This document shows positions 2,309 to 47,752 of a stretch of DNA of 64,000 nt, in pieces. A program made the position numbers and the translations under genes. The DNA is from Acutalibacteraceae bacterium. GTDB lineage: Bacteria > Bacillota > Clostridia > Oscillospirales > Acutalibacteraceae. Location: contig JAZUBL010000055.1 in the NCBI GenBank assembly GCA_045638545.1, forward strand, positions 880-64,879, read 5' to 3'. How positions within the stretch are numbered: position 1 is the stretch's first letter; each line of letters opens with the position of its first letter. The notes beneath the pieces were generated by a model. The model worked only from the letters and a program-made list of their open reading frames with translations, was not told the origin of the DNA and ran no database searches.

Positions 2309-3736
2309 ATGTATAATCCAAAATCTAAAATCGCAACTGAATTTATCGATCATGATGAGATCCTGGAATCTCTGAAATATGCAGAAGAAAACAAGAGCAA
2401 CCGTGAACTGATCGAATCTCTGCTGGACAGAGCGGAAGACTGCAGAGGCCTTACTCATAGAGAAGCTGCTGTTCTGCTGGAGTGCACAGAGCCTGACCTG
2501 AACCAGAGAATTGAAGAACTGGCAAAGAGAATCAAGCAAAAGTTCTATGGCAACCGTATCGTTATGTTTGCGCCGCTTTACCTCTCCAACTACTGCGTAA
2601 ACGGCTGCACATACTGCCCATACCATTTTAAAAACAAGAATATCTGCCGTAAGAAGCTGACACAGGAAGAAATCGTTAAGGAAGTTATTGCACTGCAGGA
2701 TATGGGTCATAAGCGTCTGGCTCTGGAAGCTGGTGAAGATCCGGTTAACAACCCAATCGAGTACATCCTGGAGAGCATCAAAACAATTTACAGCATTAAG
2801 CACAAGAACGGTGCGATCCGCCGCGTAAACGTAAATATCGCAGCAACAACAGTTGAAAACTATCGCAAGCTCCACGAGGCTGGCATCGGTACATATATCC
2901 TGTTCCAGGAAACATACCATAAGGAATCTTATGAGCAGCTCCATCCAACAGGTCCAAAGCACAACTATGCTTACCACACAGAAGCAATGGACCGTGCAAT
3001 GGAAGGCGGCATCGATGACGTAGGTATCGGCGTTCTGTTTGGCCTCGACAAGTACCGTTATGATTTCGTTGGTATGCTGATGCACGCAGAGCACCTGGAA
3101 GCAGTATTCGGCGTTGGTCCGCACACAATCAGTGTTCCAAGAATCCGTCCTGCAAACGACATCGACGTTGCAGATTTCAATAACTCCATCTCCGACGATA
3201 TCTTTGCAAAGATCGTTGCTGTTCTCCGTATTGCAGTACCATACACAGGCATGATCGTTTCCACAAGAGAATCTCAGGCTTCCCGTGAGCGCGTTCTTGA
3301 GCTGGGCGTATCTCAGATCAGCGGCGGTTCCAAGACAAGCGTTGGCGGCTATGCAGATCCGGAAGCAGAGAAGATCGACGAGAACACAACAGAGCAGTTC
3401 GACGTTGAAGATACACGTACACTGGACGAGATCGTAAACTGGCTGCTGGGCAGAGGTTTTGTACCAAGCTTCTGCACAGCCTGCTACCGCGAAGGCAGAA
3501 CAGGTGATCGCTTCATGCAGCTGGTAAAGTCCGGCCAGATTGCAAACTGCTGCCAGCCAAATGCGATCATGACACTGAAGGAGTATCTGGAAGACTATGC
3601 ATCCCCTGATACAAAGGCAAAGGGCGAGGCTGTTATTGCAAGCGAACTGGAGACAATTCCAAATCCAAAGGTAAAGGAAAGAGCGGAGCGTTTCCTCGTT
3701 GAAATGCTGGAAGGCAAGCGTGACTTCCGCTTCTAA
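2309..3736 (+). CDS. hydG: [FeFe]-hydrogenase H-cluster radical-SAM maturase HydG
   Basis: 475 aa. Carries the radical-SAM CVNGCTYC (Cx3Cx2C) motif and a C-terminal CTAC..(about 22 aa)..C auxiliary cluster motif. ThiH/HydG-like throughout, with RBS GAAGGGAG. Confidence 0.9.
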   Translation: MYNPKSKIATEFIDHDEILESLKYAEENKSNRELIESLLDRAEDCRGLTHREAAVLLECTEPDLNQRIEELAKRIKQKFYGNRIVMFAPLYLSNYCVNGCTYCPYHFKNKNICRKKLTQEEIVKEVIALQDMGHKRLALEAGEDPVNNPIEYILESIKTIYSIKHKNGAIRRVNVNIAATTVENYRKLHEAGIGTYILFQETYHKESYEQLHPTGPKHNYAYHTEAMDRAMEGGIDDVGIGVLFGLDKYRYDFVGMLMHAEHLEAVFGVGPHTISVPRIRPANDIDVADFNNSISDDIFAKIVAVLRIAVPYTGMIVSTRESQASRERVLELGVSQISGGSKTSVGGYADPEAEKIDENTTEQFDVEDTRTLDEIVNWLLGRGFVPSFCTACYREGRTGDRFMQLVKSGQIANCCQPNAIMTLKEYLEDYASPDTKAKGEAVIASELETIPNPKVKERAERFLVEMLEGKRDFRF

Positions 3737-3755
3737 AATAGAAAGGGGTGCCATT

Positions 3756-4979
3756 ATGAGCCTGACAAACACACCAAGTGCAAACCGACTGCATATTGGC
3801 ATTTACGGTAAGCGCAACAGCGGCAAATCTTCACTCATTAACGCCATTACCAGCCAGAGCATCGCGCTGGTCAGCGATGTGCCGGGTACGACAACAGACC
3901 CGGTTTACAAGGCAATGGAGATCCACGGCATCGGTCCTTGTATGCTGATTGATACTGCCGGATTTGATGATGAAGGCCACCTGGGACAGATGCGTGTGGA
4001 AAAAACAAAGGCAGCGCTGCACAAAACAGACGTTGCGCTGATGTTGTTCCCGGGCATGGATCTGGATATGGAAAAAGAATGGATCCGTGACCTGAAAAAA
4101 CAGAAAACACCAATTGTTCCAATTATCAATAAAACAGATATCCGTTCCGAAGCAGAGATTCAGGAACTGAAAACAGCCATTGAGGAACTGCTGAAAGAAC
4201 CACCAATTCTCGTCAGTGCACAGACCGGTGATGGAATTGATGATCTGAAAAAAGCAATCATCCGTGCTGTACCGGAAGATTTTGAGCAGAAGACCATTAC
4301 CGGTGCTCTTGTTTCGACCGATGACGTAGTGCTGCTGGTTATGCCGCAGGATATTCAGGCGCCGAAGGGCAGACTGATCCTGCCGCAGGTGCAGACCATC
4401 CGGGATCTGCTGGACAACAAGTGTGTTGTTGTAAGTACCACTGCAGACCAGATTGATACGGCACTGAAAGCACTGGCAAAGCCGCCGGCATTGATCATTA
4501 CCGACTCCCAGGTATTTCCGCTGGTATATGAGAAAAAGCCGGCAGAGAGCCGACTGACATCTTTTTCCCTGCTGTTTGCAGCGTATAAAGGTGATCTGCA
4601 GTCTTTTGTAGATGGCGCAGCCGCTATTGATAAGCTGACACCGCAGTCGAAAATCCTCATTGCAGAGGCCTGCACCCACGCACCGTTGGAAGAAGATATC
4701 GGCAGAGTGAAGATTCCGGCAGCACTGCGGAAACGTTACGGCGCAGAACTGCAGGTGGATATTGTCAGCGGCGCTGACTTTCCGAAGGATCTCAGTCAGT
4801 ATGATCTGGTGATTCACTGCGGAGCCTGCATGTTTAACAAAAAACACGTGATGTCCCGCATTGAACAGGCAGCTGAGCAGAAAACACCAATTACCAACTA
4901 TGGCGTAACACTGGCAAAACTGGCCGGTATTCTGGATAAAGTGGATTTGGGAACCATGGCAAAAGTAAAAAACCAGTAA
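3756..4979 (+). CDS. hydF: [FeFe]-hydrogenase maturation GTPase/scaffold HydF
   Basis: 407 aa from the ATG after GAAAGGGG. P-loop GKRNSGKSS, DTAG, NKTD, and the C-terminal CTH...HCGAC cluster motif typical of HydF. The ORF-track start (3699) overlaps hydG and was rejected. Confidence 0.85.
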   Translation: MSLTNTPSANRLHIGIYGKRNSGKSSLINAITSQSIALVSDVPGTTTDPVYKAMEIHGIGPCMLIDTAGFDDEGHLGQMRVEKTKAALHKTDVALMLFPGMDLDMEKEWIRDLKKQKTPIVPIINKTDIRSEAEIQELKTAIEELLKEPPILVSAQTGDGIDDLKKAIIRAVPEDFEQKTITGALVSTDDVVLLVMPQDIQAPKGRLILPQVQTIRDLLDNKCVVVSTTADQIDTALKALAKPPALIITDSQVFPLVYEKKPAESRLTSFSLLFAAYKGDLQSFVDGAAAIDKLTPQSKILIAEACTHAPLEEDIGRVKIPAALRKRYGAELQVDIVSGADFPKDLSQYDLVIHCGACMFNKKHVMSRIEQAAEQKTPITNYGVTLAKLAGILDKVDLGTMAKVKNQ

Positions 4980-33976: not shown

Positions 33977-35065
33977 TTACTTCAGGTTTTCAGCTTCGAA
34001 CTTAGCCATGAAGTCTACCAGTGCCTGAACGCCTTCGATTGGCATTGCGTTGTAGATGGAAGCGCGCATGCCGCCAACGGAACGGTGGCCCTTGATGTTA
34101 ACGAAGTCGTTTGCTGTAGCTTCCTTAATGAACTTTGCATCCAGTTCTTCGTCGCCTGTTACAAATGGAACGTTCATGAGGGAACGGTCTTCCGGAACAA
34201 CTGTGCCCTTGAAGAGCTTGGAGTTGTCGAGGAAATCGTAAAGGATTGCTGCCTTCTTTTCGTTGAGTTCCTTCATCTTCTCGAGGCCGCCGATGTCATT
34301 CTTAACCCACTCGAGAACCAGCTTAGCAATGTAGATTGCGTAGCAAGGTGGTGTGTTGTAGAGGGAATCGTTGTCAGCCTGTGTTCTGTAGTCGAACATT
34401 GTTGGTGTCTTATCCAGTGGCTCGCCGAGGAGATCCTCACGGATGATAACAACTGTCAGACCTGCAGGACCCATGTTCTTTTGTGCGCCTGCATAGAGGA
34501 GACCAAACTTGGAAACGTCGATTGGCTCACTGAGGATGCAGGAAGAAATGTCTGCTACCAGCGGAACGTCACCTGTCTCTGGCAGAGTGTGGAACTTTGT
34601 GCCGTAGATTGTGTTGTTCATGCAGATGTGGAAGTAGTCAGCATCCTTGGAGAATGTAGCTGGATCCAGCTTTGGAATATAGGAGAAGGTCTTGTCCTTG
34701 GAAGAAGCAACGATGTTAGCTTCGCCATAGCGAGCAGCTTCTTTCTGAGCCTTAGTAGCCCACTGACCTGTGATAACGAAGTCAGCCTTGCCGTTCTTTG
34801 TCATCAGGTTCATTGGGATCATGGAGAACTGGGAAGATGCGCCGCCCTGGAGGAACAGTACCTTGTAGTTTTCCGGAATATTCATAACCTCACGGAGAAG
34901 CTTTTCACAGTCCTTGATGATGGAATCATAAACCTTGGAACGGTGAGACATCTCCATTACGGATTGGCCGCTGCCCTGGTAGTCGAGCATTTCTTCAGCA
35001 GCGATCTTCAGAACGCTTTCTGGAAGGATGGATGGGCCAGCGGAAAAGTTGTAAACACGTTTCAT
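33977..35065 (-). CDS. serC: Phosphoserine aminotransferase
   Basis: 362 aa from MKRVYNFSAGPSILPESVL.. after GGAGG. The ORF-track start at 35113 adds 16 unsupported residues. Confidence 0.9.
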   Translation of the reverse strand: MKRVYNFSAGPSILPESVLKIAAEEMLDYQGSGQSVMEMSHRSKVYDSIIKDCEKLLREVMNIPENYKVLFLQGGASSQFSMIPMNLMTKNGKADFVITGQWATKAQKEAARYGEANIVASSKDKTFSYIPKLDPATFSKDADYFHICMNNTIYGTKFHTLPETGDVPLVADISSCILSEPIDVSKFGLLYAGAQKNMGPAGLTVVIIREDLLGEPLDKTPTMFDYRTQADNDSLYNTPPCYAIYIAKLVLEWVKNDIGGLEKMKELNEKKAAILYDFLDNSKLFKGTVVPEDRSLMNVPFVTGDEELDAKFIKEATANDFVNIKGHRSVGGMRASIYNAMPIEGVQALVDFMAKFEAENLK

Positions 35066-35145
35066 CAGTGTATACCTCCAATATAGATAAAAAGTTTCAG
35101 AAATTTGACACAATTGACGAACGTGCCAAACTTCGATACCATTTC

Positions 35146-35174
35146 ATTATATTCCTTTGTGAAAATCATGTCAA
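35146..35174 (-). promoter_or_regulatory. Promoter of serC-serA
   Basis: The minus strand reads TTGACA-17 nt-TATAAT. Confidence 0.55.
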
Positions 35175-35221
35175 CACGGATGGCACAATTCATGGTATGA
35201 AATCACCAAATTTTGTCATGT

Positions 35222-35238
35222 ATGTGACTTTTTCACAT
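35222..35238. promoter_or_regulatory. 17-nt perfect palindrome ATGTGACTTTTTCACAT (candidate regulator site)
   Basis: TGTGA-N5-TCACA core in the divergent serC / DRTGG-operon intergenic region. Confidence 0.3.
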
Positions 35239-35354
35239 TGATTTTGTATGTTTTGCCTGTGAATTAAATAACAAAATGGAGATAATTGCAAAAAATAGCT
35301 GTTTAAATTCTACATGGAACAGAACAGAAATCCGTACCAAATATGTATTCTATA

Positions 35355-35368
35355 TGTTATAATATAAT
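35355..35368 (+). promoter_or_regulatory. Extended -10 element(s) for the DRTGG-kinase-sensor operon
   Basis: TGtTATAAT with a second overlapping TATAAT, embedded in the inverted repeat TATATGT-N11-ACATATA (35351-35375). Confidence 0.4.
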
Positions 35369-35429
35369 ACATATAACTTCGTTTAAAGAAAATACTTATG
35401 CTTTTTGCAACAGAAATGGAGAGCTTACC

Positions 35430-35783
35430 ATGAAATTAAAAGAACTCTTAGAGTGCATTGATGCTGAAATAGTTGTCGACGCCGGCAATCTGGACACTGA
35501 TATTAAATGTGCCTGCGGCAGTGATATGATGAGCGATGTGCTTGCATTTGCGAAAGATCAGTCTGTATTTCTCACAGGTCTGATGAATCCGCAGGTTGTG
35601 CGCACAGCAGAAATGATGGATATGCGCTGCATCATTTTTGTACGCGGCAAAGTTGTGGATGACATGGTGAAGAATCTTGCAGAACAGATGGGCGTAACAA
35701 TTGCGACCACAAAATGCACAATGTTTACAGCCTGCGGCCGTATGTATGCAAATGGAATCAGAGGAGCGCGTGAGAAAGAATGA
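35430..35783 (+). CDS. DRTGG-domain protein (single domain, 117 aa)
   Basis: MKLKELLECIDAEIVV..SDMMSDVLAF..VFLTGLMNPQVVRTAEMMD..IIFVRGK. This resembles the small DRTGG proteins encoded beside clostridial hydrogenase loci (from memory). The ORF-track start at 35343 lies in the promoter. Confidence 0.65.
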   Translation: MKLKELLECIDAEIVVDAGNLDTDIKCACGSDMMSDVLAFAKDQSVFLTGLMNPQVVRTAEMMDMRCIIFVRGKVVDDMVKNLAEQMGVTIATTKCTMFTACGRMYANGIRGAREKE

Positions 35784-36199
35784 AACCGTTAACTTTAGAG
35801 TTTGTTGTACCAGGTGATGATTTTACCCGTGCGGGCGAAGCATCCAGCAAAGTGAAAAACATGCTGAAGCGTGTTGGCTATTCTTCTGACTGTATTCGCC
35901 GTGTAGCAATCGCTATGTACGAAGGTGAAATCAACATGGTAATCCACGGCGGCGGCGGTGTTGCTTATGTGGAGATTTATCCGGACCGCGTAGAGATTTC
36001 TCTGGTGGATGAAGGCCCTGGTATTGAAGATATTGAGAAGGCAATGCAGGAAGGTTTTTCCACAGCGCCTGATAATGTACGTACACTTGGTTTTGGCGCC
36101 GGTATGGGTCTGCCGAACATTAAAAAATATACAGATGGCATGAAGCTGGAGTCCGAAGTAGGCAAGGGCACAAAGCTGTTCATGATGATCAAGGCATAA
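35780..36199 (+). CDS. SpoIIAB-like single-domain GHKL ATPase / Ser-Thr protein kinase (anti-sigma-factor-type)
   Basis: 139 aa with an ATGA overlap onto the previous gene. N-box-like EGEINMVIH, G1 DEGPGI, G2 GFGAGMGLPN. No DHp/His domain. Confidence 0.7.
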   Translation: MKPLTLEFVVPGDDFTRAGEASSKVKNMLKRVGYSSDCIRRVAIAMYEGEINMVIHGGGGVAYVEIYPDRVEISLVDEGPGIEDIEKAMQEGFSTAPDNVRTLGFGAGMGLPNIKKYTDGMKLESEVGKGTKLFMMIKA

Positions 36200-36227
36200 C
36201 AGTCGAAAGAATTCGAGAGGTGAAAGG

Positions 36228-37559
36228 ATGAATCGTTTTTTTCATTCTGTTACATTAGATTACGATAAATGTGTAGGATGCACCAATTGTGTCAAGCACT
36301 GTCCAACAGAAGCTATTCGTATTCGAGAAGGCAAAGCGATTATCATACCAGAGCGCTGCATTGACTGCGGTGAATGTATCCGCGTCTGTCCGCACAGGGC
36401 AAAAAAAGCACGCTATGACTCGCTTGCAGACATGGATAAATTTGAATATAAAATTGCACTGCCGGCACCGTCCTTATATGGCCAGTTCAGCAATCTGGAC
36501 GAGATCGACCTGGTTCTGACCGGTCTGCGCGATTTGGGCTTTGATGAAGTGTACGAAGTTTCCAGAGCAGCGGAGCTTGTCTCGGAGGCTACCAGAAAAC
36601 TGATGCAGAGCGGCCATCTGCAGATTCCTGTAATCAGCTCCGCCTGTCCGGCAATCGTTCGTCTGATCCGTGTGCGTTTCCCGGATCTGTGCAGCCATGT
36701 ACTGCCTCTGAACGCGCCAATGGAAACAGCTGCCTGCCTTGCAAAAGAAGAGGTATCAGAGCGCCTGCAGATTCCAAAAGAGAAAATCGGTGCTGTATTT
36801 ATTACACCGTGCCCTGCAAAGGTGACCGACATTAAAGTACCGATCGGCACAGATCGTTCTGATGTGGATCTGGCGGTTCCGATCAGCGAAATTTTCCCGA
36901 AGCTGGCTGATCAGATGAAAAAAGTAACACAGTCAGAAAATCTGGCCAAGTCTGGTGTGATTGGCGTTGGCTGGGCATCCAGCGGCGGCGAGTCCGCAGG
37001 TTTGCTCCGTGAAAAATATCTGGCAGCAGACGGCATTGAAAACTGTATTCGTGTTCTGGAAGATCTGGAAGATGAGAAAATCCGCGGCCTGGATTTCATT
37101 GAGCTGAACGCCTGCAGCGGCGGCTGTGTTGGCGGTGTTGCCTGTGTGGAAAATGCTTACGTTGCAAAAGCAAGACTGCAGCATCTGCGCAAATATCTGC
37201 CGATTTCCAGAAACCATCTGATCAACAATATCCCATATTGCATGGAGTGGAATGAAGATCTGGAATATGCGCCTGTAATGAAATTGTCCGACGACATTTC
37301 TGAGGCAATGGCAATGATGATGGAGATTGATGACATCTGCAGTGAGCTGCCGGGCATGGACTGTGGTTCCTGTGGCGCACCATCCTGCCGTGCGCTTGCA
37401 GAAGATGTTGTACGCGGTGACGCAAAAAAGAGTGATTGTATCTTTATTCTGCGTGATGAAATTCAGCTGATGGCGGAGAAACTGGCAGAACTGAGCAGCA
37501 GCCAGTTCCCGACCGGTGCATCAAACCGCAAGAGAAAAGGTGGAGAAAATGAAAATTAA
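36228..37559 (+). CDS. [FeFe]-hydrogenase-like Fe-S protein (2x[4Fe-4S] ferredoxin N-terminus, H-domain-like core, C-terminal RnfB/CFeSP-type Fe-S domain); putative sensor
   Basis: 443 aa. N-terminal motifs CVGCTNCVKHCP and CIDCGECIRVCP. H-cluster-like motifs are SSACPA (L1), TPCPAK (L2) and ELNACSGGCVGG (L3). C-terminal CGSCGAPSC-x16-C. No PAS domain was seen. Confidence 0.75.
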   Translation: MNRFFHSVTLDYDKCVGCTNCVKHCPTEAIRIREGKAIIIPERCIDCGECIRVCPHRAKKARYDSLADMDKFEYKIALPAPSLYGQFSNLDEIDLVLTGLRDLGFDEVYEVSRAAELVSEATRKLMQSGHLQIPVISSACPAIVRLIRVRFPDLCSHVLPLNAPMETAACLAKEEVSERLQIPKEKIGAVFITPCPAKVTDIKVPIGTDRSDVDLAVPISEIFPKLADQMKKVTQSENLAKSGVIGVGWASSGGESAGLLREKYLAADGIENCIRVLEDLEDEKIRGLDFIELNACSGGCVGGVACVENAYVAKARLQHLRKYLPISRNHLINNIPYCMEWNEDLEYAPVMKLSDDISEAMAMMMEIDDICSELPGMDCGSCGAPSCRALAEDVVRGDAKKSDCIFILRDEIQLMAEKLAELSSSQFPTGASNRKRKGGENEN

Positions 37560-37881
37560 AGAATTAGCAGAACAGTGTGGTCTGCAGGTGCTTACCTGTC
37601 CTGATCAGCTGGATAGAGAAATTAGAGGCTGCTATATTGGTGACCTGTTAAGCTGGGCTATGGGTAAAGTGCAGGCAGACGACGTCTGGCTGACCGTAAT
37701 GGGCAACCTGAATGCGGTAGCGGTTTCTGTTCTGACAGATGCTGCCTGCATTGTACTGGTAGACAATGCATCACTGGATAAAGATGCGGAAGCAAAAGCA
37801 AACCAGCAGGATGTAGTGATTCTTTCCGGCAAACAAGGCGCTTTTGACCTTGCAATTCAGATTTCGGAGATGTTACGTTAG
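37549..37881 (+). CDS. DRTGG-domain protein (single domain, 110 aa)
   Basis: MKIKELAEQCGLQVL..IGDLLSWAMG..VWLTVMGNLNAVAVSVL.. A paralog of the 35430 gene. It starts 11 nt inside the preceding ORF, after AAAGGTGGAG. Confidence 0.65.
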   Translation: MKIKELAEQCGLQVLTCPDQLDREIRGCYIGDLLSWAMGKVQADDVWLTVMGNLNAVAVSVLTDAACIVLVDNASLDKDAEAKANQQDVVILSGKQGAFDLAIQISEMLR

Positions 37882-37884
37882 ATT

Positions 37885-38622
37885 ATGGCAAGAGTATATT
37901 ATGATTTCCATCTGCATTCCTGCTTGTCACCTTGCGGTGATAATGACATGACACCATACAATATTGCCAACATGGCGAAGTTTCTGGGCTTTGACATGAT
38001 CGCACTGACTGATCATAATTCCTGTTTGAATTGTGAGGCTGCTGTAAAAGCAGGGGAGCAGGCTGGAATCCTTGTTGTGCCGGGTATGGAACTTTGTACG
38101 ATGGAAGAAGCGCACGTTGTGTGTCTGTTTCCAACTGTAGATGACGCAATGAACTTTCATGCATATGTTCAGGAGAACACACTGCATATTCCAAACCAGC
38201 CGGAGATTTTCGGACGGCAGCTGCTGATGAATGAAACAGATAAAATTCTGGGAGAAGAGCCGAATCTGCTGATCAATTCCGCAAACATCAGCGCCAGCTC
38301 AATCGTAGATTTAACAGCAAAATATCACGGAACGGCATTTCCGGCTCATATTGACCGTTCTTCCTATAGCCTGGTAGCTAGTCTTGGTGTGATTCCGGAT
38401 GATGCGAATTTTTCCACTGTGGAAATCAGCTATGACGGAGACATCATGATGATGCAGCGTTCAAACCCTGAAATTATCGGGAAAGTTATGCTGCAGAATT
38501 CCGATGCGCATTACCTGGAACATATGCGTGATCCATATCCATGGCTGGAGCTGGAGGAAAAGTCGGTGGAGTGCCTGATTGAAACACTGCAGGGGAAACG
38601 GGAAACAGAGTGGAACCTGTAG
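37885..38622 (+). CDS. PHP-domain metal-dependent phosphoesterase
   Basis: 245 aa. N-terminal YYDFHLHSCLSPCGD and ..ALTDHNS.. are characteristic PHP His/Asp motifs. The gene begins 4 nt after the previous stop. Confidence 0.75.
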   Translation: MARVYYDFHLHSCLSPCGDNDMTPYNIANMAKFLGFDMIALTDHNSCLNCEAAVKAGEQAGILVVPGMELCTMEEAHVVCLFPTVDDAMNFHAYVQENTLHIPNQPEIFGRQLLMNETDKILGEEPNLLINSANISASSIVDLTAKYHGTAFPAHIDRSSYSLVASLGVIPDDANFSTVEISYDGDIMMMQRSNPEIIGKVMLQNSDAHYLEHMRDPYPWLELEEKSVECLIETLQGKRETEWNL

Positions 38623-38837
38623 CGAAATTGCTGGGATTGCCATAATATTCTGCATAAAAAAGTATGTGAAATTTTTAGCGAAATCTGCTAATTTTTTAAC
38701 ATGTAGATAGGTGATTTAGTCACAGTTGCGCAAAAAGAATTATGCTATATTAATTGTGCGGACAATTACTACGTAATAAAAAATTGAAATTGCTCATTTT
38801 TATTACAAATCAAAACTTTATATTTTGTGCAATTTGT

Positions 38838-38878
38838 TCGCTCTATTTGGATGATTTTATAAATTTTCCATAGAGCGA
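38838..38878. promoter_or_regulatory. Inverted repeat TCGCTCTAT-N23-ATAGAGCGA upstream of hydrogenase operon 1
   Basis: 9-bp perfect arms (extendable to about 12 bp with a 2-nt bulge) bracket an AT-rich segment containing TTATAAA, about 70 nt before the hydC1 start. Confidence 0.35.
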
Positions 38879-38948
38879 TTTTATATGTCCGAATTTGTAC
38901 AAAAAGTAATTTTATTGAATTTTCAGGAAAACCAAGGAGGCTTACAAA

Positions 38949-39452
38949 ATGACGGAGAGTTCTTACAACTATCGCACTCCTTCTTCGCTGTTAGTGGAGG
39001 TCGCTAAGATCGCCGCACGCTATCGTGGACAGCCGGACCAACTGAGCAAGGTTGCTTGGGAAGTAAAGAGAATCGTGCCTGTTTTGTCTTATGACGTGGC
39101 AAAAGTAATTGCCCGTGAGATGGGCATGAGCCTTTCTCAGGTCTACAACTTCGTAACCTTTTATGCAATGCTTTCTACAAAACCACATGGTAAATACACC
39201 ATTCGTATTTGCAGAAGCGCACCTTGCCATGTTAACGGTGCTGCAGAAGTAGTACATGCAATCGAAGATCAGCTGGGCATCAAAATGGGTGAGACCACAG
39301 AAGATGGCCGCTTTACTTTAGAGTACTGTCCATGTCTTGGTCTGTGCGATATCGCACCGGCTATCATGATTAATAAAAAAGTTTATGGTAATCTGACTGC
39401 AGATTCCGTTCGTGATCTTATTAAAATTTATATCCGGGGAGAGATTAAGTAA
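38949..39452 (+). CDS. NuoE-like [2Fe-2S] subunit of NAD(P)-linked [FeFe]-hydrogenase (HydC-type), operon 1
   Basis: 167 aa with the thioredoxin-like 2Fe-2S motifs CRSAPCH..CPCLGLCD. Confidence 0.85.
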   Translation: MTESSYNYRTPSSLLVEVAKIAARYRGQPDQLSKVAWEVKRIVPVLSYDVAKVIAREMGMSLSQVYNFVTFYAMLSTKPHGKYTIRICRSAPCHVNGAAEVVHAIEDQLGIKMGETTEDGRFTLEYCPCLGLCDIAPAIMINKKVYGNLTADSVRDLIKIYIRGEIK

Positions 39453-40753
39453 TGAAAGAAGTATTGATTCTGCTCCGAAACCGGGAACGCTATGAAGATG
39501 GTTCCTATAATCCATTTGATGCAAAAGAGTATATGGCTACTGAAGGCTTTGCAGGCCTGAAGCGCGCTCTTACAATGACCAGCGACTATATCATTAATGA
39601 AGTGAAAGAGTCCGGTCTCCGCGGCCGCGGTGGCGCAGGTTTCCCAACCTGGAGAAAGATGTCTTTCTGCGCTGGCGATGCTGAAGTAAAGTATGTAGTC
39701 TGCAACGCTGACGAAGGCGAACCAGGCACAAACAAAGACCGTGTTCTGCTGACAGTTGACCCATGCGCAATTTTTGAAGGCATGGCAATCGCAGCAAAGG
39801 CAATCGGTGCACAGCGTGGTTATCTGTATCTCCGTGCTGAGTACCGCTACATGGTTCCGGATCTGGAAGCTGCACTGCAGAGCTGCCGTGACAACAACTG
39901 CCTCGGCGACAACATTTTTGGCAGCGGTTTTAATTTTGATATTGAGATCCGTATGGGTAACGGCGCTTATGTTTGCGGTGAGGAAACTGCACTGTTTGAA
40001 TCCATCGAAGGTAAGCGCGGTGAGCCTCGTTTCCGTCCACCATATCCGGCAACACACGGCCTGTTCGGCAAGCCAACACTGCTGAACAACGTAGAAACAC
40101 TGGCAAACCTGGCACCGATTTTCCGTAATGGTGCAAAGTGGTATGCAAGCCATGGTACCGAAGGCAGCACAGGCACAAAGCTGTTCACTGTTTCTGGTAA
40201 TATTGCTCGCAAGGGCGTTTTCGAGCTCCCAATGGGTGCCAACCTGAAGGAACTGATCTTCGACTTCTGCGGCGGCGTAGCAGACGGCTATAATCTGCTG
40301 GGCGTTCAGACCGGCGGTGCATCCGGTGCGATCGTTAATGCTGACCAGATTGACGTAAGTCTGGATATCGACCACGTTTCTGCATCCGGCGGTCGTCTGG
40401 CTTGCGGTACTATCATGGTATATAGTGACAGAAACTGCATCGTTGACATTCTGCGCAACGATCTGGACTTCTTCCGTGAGGAATCCTGCGGTCAATGTAC
40501 ACCGTGCCGTGAAGGCACATTCGAGCTCTATCGCCTGGTAACTAAGATTTCTCAGGGTAAGGGTTCTATCGAAGATCTGAATACCATTGATGAACTGTGC
40601 GAAGTTATGCGCAACACTGCTCTGTGCGGCCTTGGCGTATCTGCAACAGTTCCTACCACAACCTGTATTCAGAATTTCCGCAAGGAATTCCTTGCACATA
40701 TTGATGGCGATTATTGCCACAATTGCAGTATCAGTGGAGGTGACGAAGAATGA
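39452..40753 (+). CDS. NuoF-like FMN/NAD(P)H subunit (HydB-type), core-only form, operon 1
   Basis: 433 aa; GLRGRGGAGFPT, ..CGQCTPCREG.. It lacks the N-terminal 2Fe-2S domain and the C-terminal 2x[4Fe-4S] domain present in the operon-2 paralog. Confidence 0.85.
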   Translation: MKEVLILLRNRERYEDGSYNPFDAKEYMATEGFAGLKRALTMTSDYIINEVKESGLRGRGGAGFPTWRKMSFCAGDAEVKYVVCNADEGEPGTNKDRVLLTVDPCAIFEGMAIAAKAIGAQRGYLYLRAEYRYMVPDLEAALQSCRDNNCLGDNIFGSGFNFDIEIRMGNGAYVCGEETALFESIEGKRGEPRFRPPYPATHGLFGKPTLLNNVETLANLAPIFRNGAKWYASHGTEGSTGTKLFTVSGNIARKGVFELPMGANLKELIFDFCGGVADGYNLLGVQTGGASGAIVNADQIDVSLDIDHVSASGGRLACGTIMVYSDRNCIVDILRNDLDFFREESCGQCTPCREGTFELYRLVTKISQGKGSIEDLNTIDELCEVMRNTALCGLGVSATVPTTTCIQNFRKEFLAHIDGDYCHNCSISGGDEE

Positions 40754-42474
40754 TTAATCTTACAATTGATGGATGTCCTGTTTCTGCACCTGCTGGAACT
40801 ACAATTCTCGAGGCTGCTCGCCAGGTACATATTAAAATCCCAACCCTCTGTTATCATGAGGACCAGGCTGTTAAAGCAAACTGCCGTATCTGCGTTGTTG
40901 AGGTAAACGGTAACCCAACACTGCAGACTGCTTGCTCCACACCAATTGCTGAGGGCATGAACGTTAAAACAGTTTCTTCCAGAATTACACGCTATCGCCG
41001 TGACATTCTGGAGCTGATTTTTGCGCGTCATCCACACGACTGCCTCTCCTGCCAGAAAAACGGCAGATGTGAGCTTCAGACTCTCGCGGCACAGCTGGGT
41101 GTACAGCGTCATAAGAACCGTTATCACCACGATGTTCGTAAGATCCCGGTAGATACCAGTTCTCCATCTATTACTCGTGATCCGGCAAAATGTATTCTTT
41201 GCACACGCTGCATCACTGCATGTAAAGAACTGCAGTCTGTTGACTGTATCGCAAAAGAAAACCGCGGTTATCATACCAACATCGTTCTGCCATATGGCCT
41301 TAAGCTGGCAGACACAGCTTGCGTAAACTGTGGCCAGTGCTATCAGGTATGTCCAACAGGCGCAATCACAATTCATGATGATTCCTGGAAAGTATATCAG
41401 GCAATGGACGAGGGCAAGGCTGTTGTTGCACAGATCGCTCCTTCCGTTCGTATCAACCTGGCAGAATGTCTGGGCGCAGAGCCTGGTACAGTATCTACAG
41501 GTCGTCTCGTAACAGCAATGAAGAGACTGGGCTTCACAAAGGTACTCGACTCCGACTTTACTGCTGACCTGACAATCATGGAAGAGGGTACAGAGCTTCT
41601 CGGCAGAATCAAGAACGGCGGCGTAATGCCAATGATCACTTCTTGCTGTCCTGCATGGATCAAGTTCTGTGAAACATACTTCCCAGATCAGCTCGACCAT
41701 CTCTCCAGCTGTAAGTCCCCACAGCAGATGTTTGGTCCACTGATCAAGACATGGTGTGCAGAGAAGATGGGTCTTGACCCTGCAAATGTTTACTCTGTAT
41801 CCGTTATGCCATGTACAGCAAAGAAGTTCGAAGCAGCTCGTGCAGAAATGAATGCAAGCGGCTATCAGGACGTTGACGTTGCTCTGACTGTTCAGGGTCT
41901 GGCAGACATGATCGTTGCTGCTGGTATCCAGTTTGATGAGCTGGAAGAAACTCCATTCGATTCTCCAACAGATACAGGCTCCGGCGCTGGTCTGATCTTC
42001 GGTGCAACAGGCGGTGTTATGGAAGCTGCCCTGCGTACAGTATATGAAGTTGTAACTGGTGAAACACTGCCAAAGCTGGAACTGGAAGAAGTTCGCGGCA
42101 TGGAAGGCATCAGAACTGCAACAATCGACCTGAAAGGCACACCTGTTCGTGTATGCGTAGCACACGGCCTGGCAAATGCTCGTAAGGTTATGGAGCAGGT
42201 AAAAGCTGGCACAGCTCCATATGATTTCATCGAAGTTATGGCTTGCCCAGGTGGCTGCATCTCCGGCGGCGGTAATGCTCCAAGAACATGGGCGAAGGTT
42301 GAAGCTCGTGCAAAGGCAATCTACGAAGCTGAGAAGGATCTCCCAGTACGTAAGTCTCACGAGAACCCGGTTATCACAAAGATTTACGAAGAATTCCTTG
42401 GCGAACCAAACAGCCATAAAGCACACGAATTACTTCACACAACTTATGTTGATCGCAGTGATTTGATTCGCTGA
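40750..42474 (+). CDS. hydA: [FeFe]-hydrogenase catalytic subunit (M3-type, HydA1)
   Basis: 574 aa. N-terminal 2Fe-2S, a His-ligated cluster region (HPHDCLSC..C) and 2x[4Fe-4S]. H-cluster motifs are canonical: TSCCPAW, MPCTAKKFE, EVMACPGGCISGGG. ATGA overlap with the previous gene. Confidence 0.9.
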   Translation: MINLTIDGCPVSAPAGTTILEAARQVHIKIPTLCYHEDQAVKANCRICVVEVNGNPTLQTACSTPIAEGMNVKTVSSRITRYRRDILELIFARHPHDCLSCQKNGRCELQTLAAQLGVQRHKNRYHHDVRKIPVDTSSPSITRDPAKCILCTRCITACKELQSVDCIAKENRGYHTNIVLPYGLKLADTACVNCGQCYQVCPTGAITIHDDSWKVYQAMDEGKAVVAQIAPSVRINLAECLGAEPGTVSTGRLVTAMKRLGFTKVLDSDFTADLTIMEEGTELLGRIKNGGVMPMITSCCPAWIKFCETYFPDQLDHLSSCKSPQQMFGPLIKTWCAEKMGLDPANVYSVSVMPCTAKKFEAARAEMNASGYQDVDVALTVQGLADMIVAAGIQFDELEETPFDSPTDTGSGAGLIFGATGGVMEAALRTVYEVVTGETLPKLELEEVRGMEGIRTATIDLKGTPVRVCVAHGLANARKVMEQVKAGTAPYDFIEVMACPGGCISGGGNAPRTWAKVEARAKAIYEAEKDLPVRKSHENPVITKIYEEFLGEPNSHKAHELLHTTYVDRSDLIR

Positions 42475-42758: not shown

Positions 42759-43256
42759 ATGCAAAAGCGAATCAGTAAAATGCCTTTTCAGGGTACAGAA
42801 GAACAGCAGCAGAAGCTTTTCGAGGCTATCGACAAGCTGAAGGATGAAAAGGGTGCAATTATGCCAATCCTTCAGGAAGCACAGAATATCTATGGTTACC
42901 TGCCAATCGAGGTTCAAACCATGGTGGCTGAGCGCACAGGCGTAGCTCTGGAAGAGATTTATGGCGTATCCACTTTCTACTCTATGTTCGCACTTACACC
43001 AAAGGGTAAGTACGACATTTCTGTATGTTTGGGTACAGCTTGCTACGTTAGAGGCGCACAGGATCTGATTGACAAGATCTCTGAGGTTCTCAACGTTCAG
43101 CCTGGTGATTGCACACCAGACGGCAAGTTCTCTCTCACAGAATGCAGATGCATTGGTGCATGCGGTCTTGCTCCGGTTCTTACCATTAACGAAGAAGTTT
43201 ATGGCAGACTGACAGCAGATGATATCCCAGGTATCCTGGCTAAGTACATGGATTAA
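42759..43256 (+). CDS. NuoE-like [2Fe-2S] subunit (HydC-type), operon 2
   Basis: 165 aa; CLGTACY..CRCIGACG. Confidence 0.85.
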   Translation: MQKRISKMPFQGTEEQQQKLFEAIDKLKDEKGAIMPILQEAQNIYGYLPIEVQTMVAERTGVALEEIYGVSTFYSMFALTPKGKYDISVCLGTACYVRGAQDLIDKISEVLNVQPGDCTPDGKFSLTECRCIGACGLAPVLTINEEVYGRLTADDIPGILAKYMD

Positions 43257-43261
43257 TCGCC

Positions 43262-43804
43262 ATGCGAGAGTTGTCACTGAATGTAATGGATGTGGCTCAG
43301 AACTCGGTTGTGGCCGGCGCTACGCTGACAACGATTCGTGTTGTGGAGCAGGGGAACCATTTACAGATTGAAATCAGGGACAATGGAAAAGGGATGACAG
43401 AGGAGCAGGTAAAAAACGTGACTGATCCGTTCTTTACCACAAGAACCACCCGCAAGGTTGGCCTTGGTGTGCCTCTGTTCAAAATGCAGGCGGAAATGAC
43501 AGGCGGCGGACTGACAATTACCTCCAAACCGGGAGAAGGCACGGATGTGGTTGCCACGTTTGATATGTCCCATGTGGATATGATTCCAATTGGTGACATG
43601 GAGTCGACGATTTTGTTATTAATTACCTGTAATCCGGACTCCGATTTTGTCTACTACCGATGTCATGACGACCGGTCATTTACGCTGGATACAAGGGAAC
43701 TCCGGACTGTGCTTGGCGAAGACGTTCCGCTGAACACACCGGATGTTGCAGAATGGATCAAAGAATTTTTACAAGAGAATTTAGATTCGATTCAGGGAGG
43801 ATAA
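43262..43804 (+). CDS. Stand-alone histidine-kinase-like (GHKL) ATPase embedded in hydrogenase operon 2
   Basis: 180 aa. N-box VAQNSVVAGA, G1 DNGKGM, G2 GLGVPL, ..GEGT.. No DHp/phosphoacceptor or sensor domain. Confidence 0.7.
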   Translation: MRELSLNVMDVAQNSVVAGATLTTIRVVEQGNHLQIEIRDNGKGMTEEQVKNVTDPFFTTRTTRKVGLGVPLFKMQAEMTGGGLTITSKPGEGTDVVATFDMSHVDMIPIGDMESTILLLITCNPDSDFVYYRCHDDRSFTLDTRELRTVLGEDVPLNTPDVAEWIKEFLQENLDSIQGG

Positions 43805-43811
43805 ATTTATC

Positions 43812-44180
43812 ATGAAATCTTTAGCAGAATTGCAGGCAATTCGAGATAAAGCTCGCAGCCAGATGGCTGCAAGAGAGAACGGCGAAGAAAATACCCGCGT
43901 TCTTGTTGGTATGGCTACCTGCGGTATCGCAGCAGGCGCTCGCCCAGTTCTCACAGCATTAATGGACGAAATTTCCAAGAGAGGACTTTCCAAGGTTACT
44001 GTTACACAGACAGGCTGCATTGGCATCTGCCAGTTCGAGCCAATCTTCGAAGTTCTCGTACCAGGCCAGGAGAAGGTTACTTATGTTAACATGACACCTG
44101 AAAAGGCTGTTCGTGTTGTTAACGACCACCTGGTAAATGGCAACGTAGTATCTGAATTTACAATTGGCGCAAATACATAA
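43812..44180 (+). CDS. Thioredoxin-like [2Fe-2S] ferredoxin subunit (HndB-like)
   Basis: 122 aa; ..VGMATCGIAAG..QTGCIGICQFEP.. Confidence 0.75.
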   Translation: MKSLAELQAIRDKARSQMAARENGEENTRVLVGMATCGIAAGARPVLTALMDEISKRGLSKVTVTQTGCIGICQFEPIFEVLVPGQEKVTYVNMTPEKAVRVVNDHLVNGNVVSEFTIGANT

Positions 44181-44198
44181 TAAAAGGGGGAAATGAGT

Positions 44199-45986
44199 AT
44201 GTATCGTTCCAACGTTCTTGTTTGCGGCGGTACCGGCTGTACAGCGAACCACAGCAAAGATGTTATTGCAAAGCTGCAGGAAGAAATCAAGCTGAAGGGC
44301 CTGGATAAGGAAGTTAACGTTATCCAGACAGGCTGCTTTGGTCTGTGTGCAGAAGGTCCAATCATGATCGTATATCCGGAAGGCGCATTCTACAGCAGAG
44401 TAAAAGCTGAAGATATTCCGGAAATCGTTGAAGAACACCTGCTTAAGGGCAGAATCGTAAAGCGTCTGCTTTACAAAGAAACCGTAGAGGAAGATGTTAT
44501 TCATTCTCTCAATGATACACCTTTCTATAAGAAGCAAATGCGTATCGCACTGCGCAACTGCGGCGTTATCAACCCAGAAGTTATTGATGAATACATTGCA
44601 ATGGATGGCTATGCAGCACTTGGCAAGGTTCTGCTGGAAATGACACCAGAGCAGGTTATTGAAGAAATCAAGGCTTCTGGTCTCCGTGGCCGTGGCGGCG
44701 GCGGCTTCCCAACAGGTATCAAGTGGAGCCTCGCAGCAGCTTCTCAGTCTGATAAGAAGTTCGTTTGCTGTAACGCTGACGAAGGTGACCCAGGTGCATT
44801 TATGGATCGTTCCATCCTGGAAGGTGACCCACATGCTGTTCTGGAAGCAATGGCAATCGCTGGTTATGCAATCGGTGCAGACCAGGGTTACATTTACATC
44901 CGTGCTGAGTACCCAATCGCTGTTCACCGTCTCCAGATCGCTATTGATCAGGCTGGTGAAATGGGTCTCCTCGGCAAGAATATCTTCGGTACAGACTTCT
45001 GTTTCGACATCGAGCTCCGTCTTGGTGCTGGTGCATTCGTATGTGGTGAAGAGACAGCTCTGCTGGCTTCTATCGAAGGCAAGCGCGGTGAGCCAAAGTC
45101 CCGTCCACCATATCCGGCAGTTAAGGGTCTGTTCGAGAAGCCAACACTGCTGAACAACGTAGAAACATACGCAAATATCGCTCAGATCATCCTCAACGGT
45201 GCTGAGTGGTTCAGCAAGATCGGCACAGAGCGCTCCCACGGTACAAAGGTATTTGCACTGGGCGGCGCTATCAACAACACAGGTCTCGTAGAAGTACCAA
45301 TGGGTATTACACTGCGCGAAGTTGTTGACGAAATCGGCGGCGGCGTTCTGGGCGGCGGCAAGTTCAAGGCAGCTCAGACAGGCGGCCCATCCGGCGGTTG
45401 TATCCCTGCATCCCTGCTGGATGTTGAGATTGACTATGACAACCTGGTAGCAATCGGCTCCATGATGGGTTCCGGCGGTCTCATCGTTATGGACGAGTCT
45501 ACCTGTATGGTTGACATCGCTCTGTTCTTCCTCCGCTTTACTGTTGACGAGTCCTGCGGTAAATGTACAGCTTGCCGTATCGGTACACGTCGTCTCCTCG
45601 AAATGCTCGAGAAGATCACAGAAGGCAGAGGCGAGCCAGGTGATCTGGAGCGTATGGAAGCTCTTGCTGAGTACATCAAGCAGAACTCCCTGTGCGCACT
45701 CGGCCAGTCCGCTCCAAACCCAGTTCTTTCTACCCTCAGATACTTCCGCGATGAGTACGTTGCTCACGTTGAAGAGCACCGTTGCCCAGCAGGCGCATGT
45801 AAGGCTCTCACAAACTACATCATCAAGGCTGACAAGTGTGTTGGCTGCACAGCTTGTGCAAGAGTATGTCCTGTTGATGCAATCAGCGGCAAGGTTAAAG
45901 AACCACACGTTATTGATACATCCAAGTGTATTAAGTGCGGTGCTTGCGTTGAGAAGTGTAAGTTCGACGCAATTTACAGAGGCTAA
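44199..45986 (+). CDS. NuoF-like FMN/NAD(P)H subunit (HydB/HndC-type), full-length, operon 2
   Basis: 595 aa from the second ATG (MYRSNVLVCGGTGC..), 8 nt after AAAGGGGG. It has an N-terminal 2Fe-2S domain, GLRGRGGGGFPT, CGKCTACR, and a C-terminal CVGCTACARVCP / CIKCGACVEKC. Confidence 0.9.
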   Translation: MYRSNVLVCGGTGCTANHSKDVIAKLQEEIKLKGLDKEVNVIQTGCFGLCAEGPIMIVYPEGAFYSRVKAEDIPEIVEEHLLKGRIVKRLLYKETVEEDVIHSLNDTPFYKKQMRIALRNCGVINPEVIDEYIAMDGYAALGKVLLEMTPEQVIEEIKASGLRGRGGGGFPTGIKWSLAAASQSDKKFVCCNADEGDPGAFMDRSILEGDPHAVLEAMAIAGYAIGADQGYIYIRAEYPIAVHRLQIAIDQAGEMGLLGKNIFGTDFCFDIELRLGAGAFVCGEETALLASIEGKRGEPKSRPPYPAVKGLFEKPTLLNNVETYANIAQIILNGAEWFSKIGTERSHGTKVFALGGAINNTGLVEVPMGITLREVVDEIGGGVLGGGKFKAAQTGGPSGGCIPASLLDVEIDYDNLVAIGSMMGSGGLIVMDESTCMVDIALFFLRFTVDESCGKCTACRIGTRRLLEMLEKITEGRGEPGDLERMEALAEYIKQNSLCALGQSAPNPVLSTLRYFRDEYVAHVEEHRCPAGACKALTNYIIKADKCVGCTACARVCPVDAISGKVKEPHVIDTSKCIKCGACVEKCKFDAIYRG

Positions 45987-46006
45987 AGAAAGGAGTGTTT
46001 CAAGAA

Positions 46007-47752
46007 ATGTTTAATATCAAAATTAACGATATCGCTTATTCCGTACCGAAAGGTTCCACAATTCTTGAGGCTGCAAGATTTGCAGGCATTAACATTCCGA
46101 CCTTATGTTACCTCAAGGGCCTCAACGAAATCGGCGCATGCCGTGTTTGTGTTGTAGAGGTTAAGGGCGCTCGTTCCCTGGTTGCAGCATGTATGCACCC
46201 AGTAAACGAGGGCATGGAGATCTATACAAATACTCCAAAGGTTATCGAATCCAGAAAGATGACAATGCAGCTGCTCCTGTCTGTTCATGACAGAAAGTGC
46301 CTCTCCTGCGTAAGAAGCGGCTCCTGCGAATTCCAGCAGCTCTGCCACGATCTGGGTGTTGAAGATGAAGGCGCATTTGACGGTGCATTCCCAGAAGCAA
46401 TCTATGACGATTCTTCCGTACATATGATCCGTGACAACAGCAAGTGCGTTCTCTGCCGTCGCTGCGTAGCTGCTTGCGAAGCACAGCACACAGCAGTTAT
46501 CGGTGCTAACAACCGTGGTTTCGACACAGCTATTGGCTGCGCATTTGAGCAGACACTGGCTGATGTTGCATGTATCTCCTGTGGTCAGTGTATCGTAAAC
46601 TGCCCAACAGGCGCACTGGTTGAAAAGGACAGCACAGCAGACGTTATGGCTGCAATCGCTGATCCAGAGAAGTTCGTTGTTGTTCAGACTGCTCCTGCAA
46701 TCCGTGCAACACTGGGCGAATGCTTCGATATGCCAATCGGTACAAACGTAAAGGGCAAGATGGTTGCAGCACTGCGCCGCCTTGGCTTTGACCGTGTATT
46801 TGACACCGACTTCGGCGCTGACCTGACAATCATGGAAGAAGGCACAGAGTTCATCCACAGAGTAAAGGAAGGCGGCGTTCTGCCAATGATCACATCCTGT
46901 TCCCCAGGTTGGATCAAGTACATCGAGCACTTCTACCCAGAACTGCTTCCACACCTCTCCAGCTGTAAGTCCCCACAGTCTATGCAGGGCGCACTGACAA
47001 AGAGCTGGTACGCTGAGAAGATGGGCATCGATCCAAAGAACATCGTAAGCGTATCCATTATGCCATGTACAGCTAAGAAGTTCGAGATTCAGCGTGACGA
47101 CATGAACGGCGCTGGCGCAGATCTGATGGATAACGACTACACACTCACAACACGTGAGCTGGGCCGTCTCATCAAGAAGTGCGGTATCGACTTTGTAAAC
47201 CTGCCAGACGAAGAGTTCGATCCATGCATGGACGTAACAACAGGCGCAGCTGTTATCTTCGGTACAACAGGCGGCGTTATGGAGGCTGCTCTCCGTACAG
47301 TTGCTGATGTTCTCGCAGGCGAAGAGCTTCAGCAGATCGACTACCACGAAGTACGTGGCATGGGCGAGATCAAGGAAGCTACATATGATGTAGCAGGCAT
47401 GAAGGTTAACGTAGCAGTTGCTTCCGGCATGAACAATGCTAAGGTTATTCTTGACAAGATCAAGAACGGCGAAGCAGACTACCACTTCATCGAGATCATG
47501 GGTTGCCCAGGCGGCTGCATCAACGGCGGCGGCCAGCCAACACAGCCAGCACTTGTTCGTGGCTTCACAGACTTCCGTGAGAAGAGAGCAGAAGCACTCT
47601 ACGAGGAAGACAGAAATCTGCCACTCCGCAAGAGCCACCACAGCCCAATCGTTAAGCTGGTATACGAAGAGTACCTCGGCGAGCCAGGCAGCCACAAGGC
47701 ACACGAACTGCTGCACACAACTTATGTAGCACGTGAAAAATACAAGAAATAA
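46007..47752 (+). CDS. hydA: [FeFe]-hydrogenase catalytic subunit (M3-type, HydA2) with variant L1 motif TSCSPGW
   Basis: 581 aa from the ATG 9 nt after AAAGGAG. Same domain order as HydA1. L2 (MPCTAKKFE) and L3 (EIMGCPGGCINGGGQP) are canonical. L1 reads TSCSPGW (46892-46912). Confidence 0.9.
   Translation: MFNIKINDIAYSVPKGSTILEAARFAGINIPTLCYLKGLNEIGACRVCVVEVKGARSLVAACMHPVNEGMEIYTNTPKVIESRKMTMQLLLSVHDRKCLSCVRSGSCEFQQLCHDLGVEDEGAFDGAFPEAIYDDSSVHMIRDNSKCVLCRRCVAACEAQHTAVIGANNRGFDTAIGCAFEQTLADVACISCGQCIVNCPTGALVEKDSTADVMAAIADPEKFVVVQTAPAIRATLGECFDMPIGTNVKGKMVAALRRLGFDRVFDTDFGADLTIMEEGTEFIHRVKEGGVLPMITSCSPGWIKYIEHFYPELLPHLSSCKSPQSMQGALTKSWYAEKMGIDPKNIVSVSIMPCTAKKFEIQRDDMNGAGADLMDNDYTLTTRELGRLIKKCGIDFVNLPDEEFDPCMDVTTGAAVIFGTTGGVMEAALRTVADVLAGEELQQIDYHEVRGMGEIKEATYDVAGMKVNVAVASGMNNAKVILDKIKNGEADYHFIEIMGCPGGCINGGGQPTQPALVRGFTDFREKRAEALYEEDRNLPLRKSHHSPIVKLVYEEYLGEPGSHKAHELLHTTYVAREKYKK

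Follow-up and report, generated by a model that had tools for sequence, protein, structure and literature searches.

HydS of an Acutalibacteraceae bacterium, a probable group D [FeFe] hydrogenase encoded in a conserved five-gene cassette

Introduction

Group D (M2e) [FeFe] hydrogenases possess two N-terminal [4Fe-4S] motifs, an H-domain and a C-terminal Cx2Cx4Cx16C motif, and have no PAS domain (Land et al. 2020, PMC8163306). C299 and the remainder of the group A proton path have been lost from these enzymes, and M353 is replaced by a well conserved Ser or Thr (PMC8163306); of the group A path, only E282 is kept. Group D genes often share an operon with group A hydrogenases, and they adjoin a gene for a histidine-kinase-like ATPase (PMC8163306).

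The model member, TamHydS of Thermoanaerobacter mathranii, has been studied in papers that appeared from 2020 to 2026 (PMC8163306, PMC10407848, PMC11803613, PMC13104023). It was matured artificially and investigated by EPR, FTIR and electrochemistry, and a sensory role was proposed (PMC8163306). The protein takes up the 2Fe(adt) cofactor spontaneously, displays the Hox and Hred states and interconverts H+ and H2 in both directions (PMC8163306), with H2 evolution a thousand-fold below that of group A enzymes and a large overpotential (PMC11803613). TamHydS is placed in a class of putative H2 sensors with low turnover (PMC8163306, PMC11803613). Its group D-specific proton path is comprised of E252-E289-S249-D265 (PMC10407848). 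The C-terminal cluster was probed with a C379A variant, and charged residues (R30, R32, K35, K58, D378, E392, D393 and D403) were found to be conserved in 70 group D sequences (PMC13104023). H2 reduces one of the N-terminal clusters of TamHydS, but not the C-terminal cluster (PMC13104023). Across a broad range of potentials the enzyme stays reduced by one electron, and its secondary structure shifts on exposure to H2.

A hydrogenase-like gene, here called hydS, was located in a 64,000-nucleotide stretch of DNA from an Acutalibacteraceae bacterium (the window). The initial annotation had described its product as a possible sensor with an architecture of its own; in the analysis reported here, the gene product was compared with TamHydS and with the other groups of [FeFe] hydrogenases.

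Results and discussion

The hydS gene and its domains

The hydS gene is an open frame of 443 codons that begins with ATG. Its features are as follows.

36228..37559 (+): hydS, group D (M2e) putative sensory [FeFe] hydrogenase, 443 aa (ORF, Pfam, signature-residue table, tree)
36249..36401 (+): N-terminal 2x[4Fe-4S] ferredoxin-like F-domain, aa 8-58 (Pfam Fer4/Fer4_10)
36453..37136 (+): H-domain, aa 76-303 (Pfam PF02906, Fe_hyd_lg_C, E = 8e-33; PDB alignment; columns over 109 orthologs)
36981..37103 (+): group D-specific alternative proton path, S252, E255, D268 and E292 (column counts, 109 orthologs)
37347..37445 (+): C-terminal Fe-S domain, aa 374-406 (Pfam PF04060 'FeS', E = 2.6e-13)

A Pfam scan of HydS matched Fer4 twice, PF02906 once and PF04060 once. 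Neither a PAS family nor the small-subunit domain PF02256 was matched in that scan, and 39 residues follow C404, the last cysteine of the C-terminal motif. The H-domain scored 114 bits, compared with 319-329 bits for the group A paralogs of the same genome.

The motifs named in the initial annotation were all recovered. The first of two CxxCxxCxxxCP motifs spans aa 15-26 (nt 36270-36305) and the second aa 44-55 (nt 36357-36392); their eight cysteines (15, 18, 21, 25, 44, 47, 50 and 54) are invariant in 31 orthologs. L1 is SSACP (aa 137-141), exactly at nt 36636-36650; the SSACPA of the initial annotation gave six residues for this five-codon span. L2 is TPCPAK (aa 193-198, nt 36804-36821) and L3 is ELNACSGGCVGG (aa 292-303, nt 37101-37136). 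The C-terminal CGSCGAPSC-x16-C fits Cx2Cx4Cx16C, with C379, C382, C387 and C404 (nt 37362-37439), and these cysteines are likewise invariant in the orthologs. The domain that holds them had been called RnfB- or corrinoid Fe-S protein-like, which agrees with the match to PF04060, a domain present also in those two proteins.

Whether the three motifs correspond to L1-L3 of known hydrogenases was examined by aligning HydS with proteins of solved structure. In phmmer searches of the PDB, SSACP aligned with TSCCP/TSACP, TPCPAK with MPCIAK, and ELNACSGGCVGG with EYMACPGGCVCG of Desulfovibrio desulfuricans HydAB (DdHydAB); all three motifs matched L1, L2 and L3 of DdHydAB column for column. Together with the Pfam match, these alignments show that the motifs are homologous to L1-L3, far beyond chance resemblance. 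An AlphaFold2 model of HydS, built on 31 orthologs, had a pLDDT of 87.7 and a pTM of 0.84, and its best Foldseek matches were solved [FeFe] hydrogenases (E about 1e-20). No group C or D enzyme was found among the solved structures; the best PDB matches are group A enzymes with 20-23% identity. The last 17 residues of HydS form a C-terminal tail that is unconserved and modelled with low confidence.

Signature residues and comparison with TamHydS

The residues that separate the hydrogenase groups were tabulated by alignment column. The rows were 109 orthologs of HydS, 10 proteins of group C type, 2 that are group B-like, and, for group A, the 3 HydA proteins of the same genome. The group D signatures split the groups cleanly in this table, in which the group C-type and B-like labels were set by domain content and length.

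HydS retains the H-cluster ligands C140, C195, C296 and C300 (equivalent to CpI C300, C355, C499 and C503) and K198 (K358), all of which are invariant in the 109 orthologs, as is P194. The position of the proton-relay cysteine, C299, is occupied by A139, and by Ala in 109 of 109 orthologs. Both observations bear out the earlier claim that the cluster cysteines are kept while the relay cysteine is replaced. M353 corresponds to T193; the orthologs have Ser (65), Thr (42) or Ala (2) there, so that a Ser or Thr is present in 107 of 109, compared with Gly in the group C-type rows and Met in the group A rows. N294 occupies the position of M497. By sequence, HydS has binding sites for two N-terminal [4Fe-4S] clusters, a complete H-cluster site with its pocket for the 2Fe subcluster, and a site for a C-terminal [4Fe-4S] cluster, the fourth in the protein.

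In the alignment with DdHydAB, E120 of HydS falls on E282, K124 on R286 and L159 on S319, and the position of E279 falls in a gap. Residues of the group D-specific path are conserved in the orthologs: E255 in 107, D268 and E292 in all 109, and S252 in 94. At the E255 position, the rows of the other groups (C, B and A) have I, L or V. By sequence, the proton path of group A is thus dismantled in HydS, with the group D-specific path (E255, E292, S252 and D268) in its stead, as in TamHydS.

The comparison with TamHydS was drawn from published residue numbers, primer-encoded peptides and the group definition; TamHydS is not a row of the alignment. The two proteins share their domain order and are of near-identical length; both lack a PAS domain, and both have Ala at the C299 position (A139 here, A137 in TamHydS) and a hydroxyl residue at M353 (T193 and S191, respectively). 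E255, E292, S252 and D268 of HydS correspond to E252, E289, S249 and D265 of TamHydS, and C379 and C404 bear identical numbers in both proteins. The charged residues R31, R33, K36, K59, D378, E392, D393 and D403 are present in HydS and conserved in its orthologs; the first four correspond to R30, R32, K35 and K58 of TamHydS and the other four are numbered alike, such that R/K surround the N-terminal clusters and D/E the C-terminal cluster in each. E392-D393 is found in 108 of 109 orthologs and is I/V-A in the PAS-containing relatives. The TamHydS primers (PMC10407848) encode SGGEAFGTF and DLDFFEGLAC, where HydS has SGGESAGLL and GLDFIELNAC.

HydS differs from TamHydS in the following respects. 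M353 is Thr here and Ser in TamHydS; M497 is Asn294 here and Leu291 in TamHydS, at a position reported to be variable and poorly conserved. The host here is an uncultured gut-type member of Clostridia, no AraC-type regulator gene was seen adjoining hydS, and the 17-residue tail of HydS is unconserved.

These observations make it very likely that HydS is a group D (M2e) [FeFe] hydrogenase. The claim that its architecture departs from the described sensory groups therefore does not hold: the lack of a PAS domain, which the Pfam scan confirmed, the additional C-terminal Fe-S domain and the encoding of the partners as separate genes all belong to the published M2e/group D definition (PMC8163306). 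The class, the motif changes, the extra cluster and the low activity of group D have all been published already, and HydS is an ordinary member. The experiments that had been proposed for it (maturation with a 2Fe mimic, FTIR/EPR and rate measurements) have likewise been published for TamHydS.

A group A catalytic enzyme was considered and rejected, because HydS has SSACP, TPCPAK and Asn294 at Met497, and no PF02256 domain. HydS does share the H-domain fold, the four H-cluster cysteines and the lysine with group A enzymes (CpI, DdHydAB, and HydA1 and HydA2 of the window), and the 2x[4Fe-4S] F-domain of DdHydAB resembles its own. Group A enzymes differ in having TSCCP, MPC, Met at 497, the E279/S319/E282/R286 proton path and PF02256, and in having no C-terminal Fe-S domain.

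Relatives and phylogeny

A protein search with HydS returned at least 8000 proteins at E <= 1e-5, and the best 120 of these were all at least 68% identical to it. The nearest loci (the best 80) belong to Oscillospirales-type MAGs, of Oscillospiraceae or Acutalibacteraceae, and reach 85% identity at best. Full-length orthologs of HydS were present in 79 of 151 genomes sampled evenly from the host class, which makes group D HydS very common in gut-type Clostridia, with about half of the sampled class genomes encoding it. Most of the 79 orthologs are 420-470 aa long, with 40-56% identity and E <= 1e-101.

Below the 79 orthologs there is a gap in score, and the next tier in the 151 class-level genomes begins at E about 1e-43. 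Nine of its members were scanned with Pfam; those of 557-878 aa were labelled group C-type and those of 474-477 aa group B-like, according to domain content and length. One group C-type protein (579 aa) has the same Fe-S domain as HydS followed by a PAS domain, one of 878 aa has a PAS domain and a sigma-54 activator domain, and one of 865 aa has a sigma-54 activator domain with no PAS match. Four proteins of 557-574 aa have the Fe-S domain and a C-terminal extension, with no PAS match at E <= 1e-5. The two proteins of 474-477 aa are without the C-terminal domain.

In a maximum-likelihood tree, HydS and the PAS-less orthologs grouped together with support of 100/100. The group C-type proteins, which include those with a PAS domain, were sister to this clade, and the group A and B-like rows fell outside both. 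The rows of the tree include no TamHydS, TmHydS or HydDB reference, and the groups in it are named from domain content and signature residues; on that footing, the topology is the published one.

Group C (M2f), exemplified by HydS of Thermotoga maritima and represented in the tree by the group C-type sister clade, resembles HydS in its two N-terminal [4Fe-4S] motifs, H-domain and C-terminal Cx2Cx4Cx16C, and in C299 often being Ala. The group C-type proteins differ from HydS in several respects. They have a C-terminal extension past the Fe-S domain, with PAS and/or a sigma-54 activator in three of the scanned proteins; their residue at M353 is Gly, the E255 position is taken by I/L/V, and E392-D393 is I/V-A; and they are only 26-33% identical to HydS. 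A group C sensor was rejected for HydS, since it has no PAS domain and stops so soon after C404.

The five-gene cassette

The hydS gene stands in the middle of a tight row of five genes, the other four of which are listed below.

35430..35783 (+): DRTGG-domain protein 1 (Pfam DRTGG, conservation over 77 orthologs, synteny)
35780..36199 (+): small GHKL ATPase of the SpoIIAB/RsbW anti-sigma/serine-kinase type, 139 aa (Pfam HATPase_c_2)
37549..37881 (+): DRTGG-domain protein 2 (Pfam DRTGG)
37885..38622 (+): PHP-family metal-dependent phosphoesterase, 245 aa (Pfam PHP; PDB 3E0F, E = 2e-4)

The open frame of the first DRTGG protein begins at 35343. Conservation over its 77 orthologs begins at Met30 (nt 35430), and the ATG at 35430 is likely to be the true start. 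For the second DRTGG protein, the longest frame runs from a GTG at 37516 and has a conserved Met at position 12; the likely start is the corresponding ATG at 37549, which overlaps the end of hydS by 11 nt and suggests translational coupling of the two genes.

The 139-aa ATPase matched the NCBIfam anti-sigma F factor model at E = 4e-15, a score below its cut-off, and SpoIIAB in the PDB (1TID/1TH8) at E = 6e-8. Its ATP-binding boxes are conserved in 79 orthologs. The motifs of the PHP protein (H.H, DHN, E..H, PAHiD and SDAH) are conserved in 73 orthologs. Because the ATP-binding boxes and the metal-binding His/Asp motifs are conserved, both the SpoIIAB-like kinase and the PHP protein are probably active. 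The PHP protein also has a conserved H.HSCLSPC motif, in which two cysteines directly follow the HxH metal site (at least 90% of the 73 orthologs); these might constitute an extra metal or redox site.

All five genes were found in 72 of 80 related loci and were collinear in 71, the incomplete loci including several with a contig end inside or right beside the cassette. A HydA gene lay within 7 kb of the cassette in 60 of the 80 loci, downstream on the same strand or divergent. A scan of 35050-39000 for promoters and terminators gave counts close to those of shuffled sequences. The four small partner genes, nearly always found with HydS, provide a candidate list for the relay of an H2 signal from group D enzymes.

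Neighbouring hydrogenase operons and maturases

Two hydrogenase operons lie downstream of the cassette, and two maturase genes are also encoded in the window.

38949..42474 (+): hydrogenase operon 1, with NuoE-like, short NuoF-like and group A HydA (TSCCP) genes (Pfam, NCBIfam)
42759..47752 (+): hydrogenase operon 2, with NuoE-like, GHKL ATPase, 2Fe-2S protein, long NuoF-like and group A HydA (TSCSP) genes (Pfam)
2312..4943 (+): H-cluster maturases hydG (2312-3733) and hydF (3768-4943), both above NCBIfam cut-offs

As in the group D definition, hydS is thus adjoined by genes for group A multimeric hydrogenases and for a histidine-kinase-like ATPase. The host genome has three group A HydA genes. 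It also encodes hydE, above the NCBIfam cut-off, on another contig (G000:C38), and hydE, hydF and hydG are therefore all present. About 31 kb separate the adjacent hydG and hydF from the hydrogenase cluster downstream of them.

Operon 1, the HydA of which has TSCCPAW, separates the cassette from the usual five-gene operon. Of the loci compared, L001 and L002, the two nearest, were the only ones with close counterparts of it (84-87% identity); elsewhere the cassette was flanked directly by an operon of the operon-2 type, with 46-55% identity to the NuoF and HydA of operon 1. Operon 1 looks like a lineage-specific extra hydrogenase.

HydA2 (window 46892-46912) and the third HydA paralog (G000:C34, L081) both have TSCSPGW, which places a Ser at the position of the CpI C300 ligand. 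TSCSPGW was present in 53 of 56 long ORFs with L1 and MPCxxK in the fetched loci, a count that includes the two copies from the host genome, and the bifurcating HydA1 of Acetobacterium woodii (PDB 7Q4V) has an identical ITSCSPGW, together with SSCKSPQ. TSCSPGW in HydA2 is therefore neither a sequencing error nor the mark of a dead enzyme, as it is the usual form and is the same in the solved A. woodii enzyme.

Possible function of HydS

The explanation that best accounts for the observations as a whole, and one that can be held with good confidence, is that HydS is a group D enzyme, orthologous in type to TamHydS, with putative H2 sensing. The sensory part is the less secure: the balance of evidence leans towards an H2-sensor role for HydS, and the sensor function of group D enzymes is itself putative in the field. 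In the initial annotation, poor turnover was taken to fit a sensor, and the architecture to differ from that of the described sensory groups. The former agrees with the status of the class as putative low-turnover H2 sensors, as exemplified by TamHydS (PMC8163306, PMC11803613), and the latter falls away, as the architecture is not distinct from the described groups.

By analogy with the biochemistry of TamHydS, HydS would be matured by the HydE, HydF and HydG of its host and so bind a 2Fe subcluster. It would then react with H2, with a turnover about a thousand-fold slower than that of group A enzymes, and would be expected to stay one-electron-reduced over a wide potential range and to change its secondary structure on H2. 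Since H2 leaves the C-terminal cluster of TamHydS unreduced, the signal from HydS would probably lie in a change of conformation rather than in the redox state of that cluster. The gene context suggests that the four partner proteins (SpoIIAB-like kinase, both DRTGG proteins and PHP phosphoesterase) may read the H2-dependent state of HydS, and that the cassette proteins may together tune the adjacent NuoE/NuoF/HydA hydrogenases.

A speculative version of this would be a phospho-signalling module, in which the H2-induced state of HydS gates the SpoIIAB-like kinase, the substrate of the kinase is a DRTGG protein and not a STAS protein, the PHP protein resets the system, and the adjacent electron-bifurcating-type hydrogenases are controlled after translation. 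We regard this particular scheme as tentative and rather doubtful. A full-text literature search found no description of a phospho-signalling mechanism with HydS, DRTGG and PHP proteins, no paper joining DRTGG proteins with a hydrogenase and none on the cassette. The cassette contains no gene for a DNA-binding protein or sigma factor.

HydS could alternatively serve metabolism and not sensing, as a slow hydrogenase or as a redox subunit; it might, for example, feed electrons from H2 to a partner through its ferredoxin-like clusters, or be an accessory subunit of the NuoE/NuoF/HydA complexes. Catalysis in both directions by TamHydS (PMC8163306), the reduction of one of its N-terminal clusters by H2 (PMC13104023) and the proximity of hydS to genes for trimeric hydrogenases, with HydA no more than 7 kb away in 60 of 80 loci, are all consistent with such a role. 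However, the thousand-fold lower H2 evolution and large overpotential of TamHydS (PMC11803613) argue against it, as does the position of hydS among genes for kinase-like, phosphoesterase and DRTGG proteins and not electron carriers; moreover, three HydA genes of group A are already present in the organism. A metabolic role is thus considered unlikely. The idea that HydS is a Nar1/NARF-like Fe-S protein, devoid of the 2Fe subcluster and sensing redox or O2 through its [4Fe-4S] clusters, would fit the replacement of the relay cysteine and both second-shell Met residues and the low H-domain score relative to group A, but is highly improbable given the invariance of the four H-cluster cysteines, K198 and P194 in 109 orthologs, the maturases encoded in the genome (two of them within the window), the exclusively bacterial nearest relatives among the matches listed, and a clade that is prokaryotic (in a comparison with no Nar1 row) and whose model member takes up 2Fe(adt) and shows Hox/Hred states (PMC8163306).

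Related fusion proteins

Among the related loci, fusions of about 880 aa from Clostridia were also observed, in which a HydS-type hydrogenase and C-terminal Fe-S domain are joined to a sigma-54 activator AAA+ domain and an HTH domain (L117:305-2941, minus strand; L124:394-2991, minus strand; L118:1626-4262, plus strand). Two of these, L117 and L124, were scanned with Pfam: a PAS domain was matched between the Fe-S and sigma-54 domains in L117 but not in L124. Such fusions would be one-protein H2-responsive enhancer-binding proteins.
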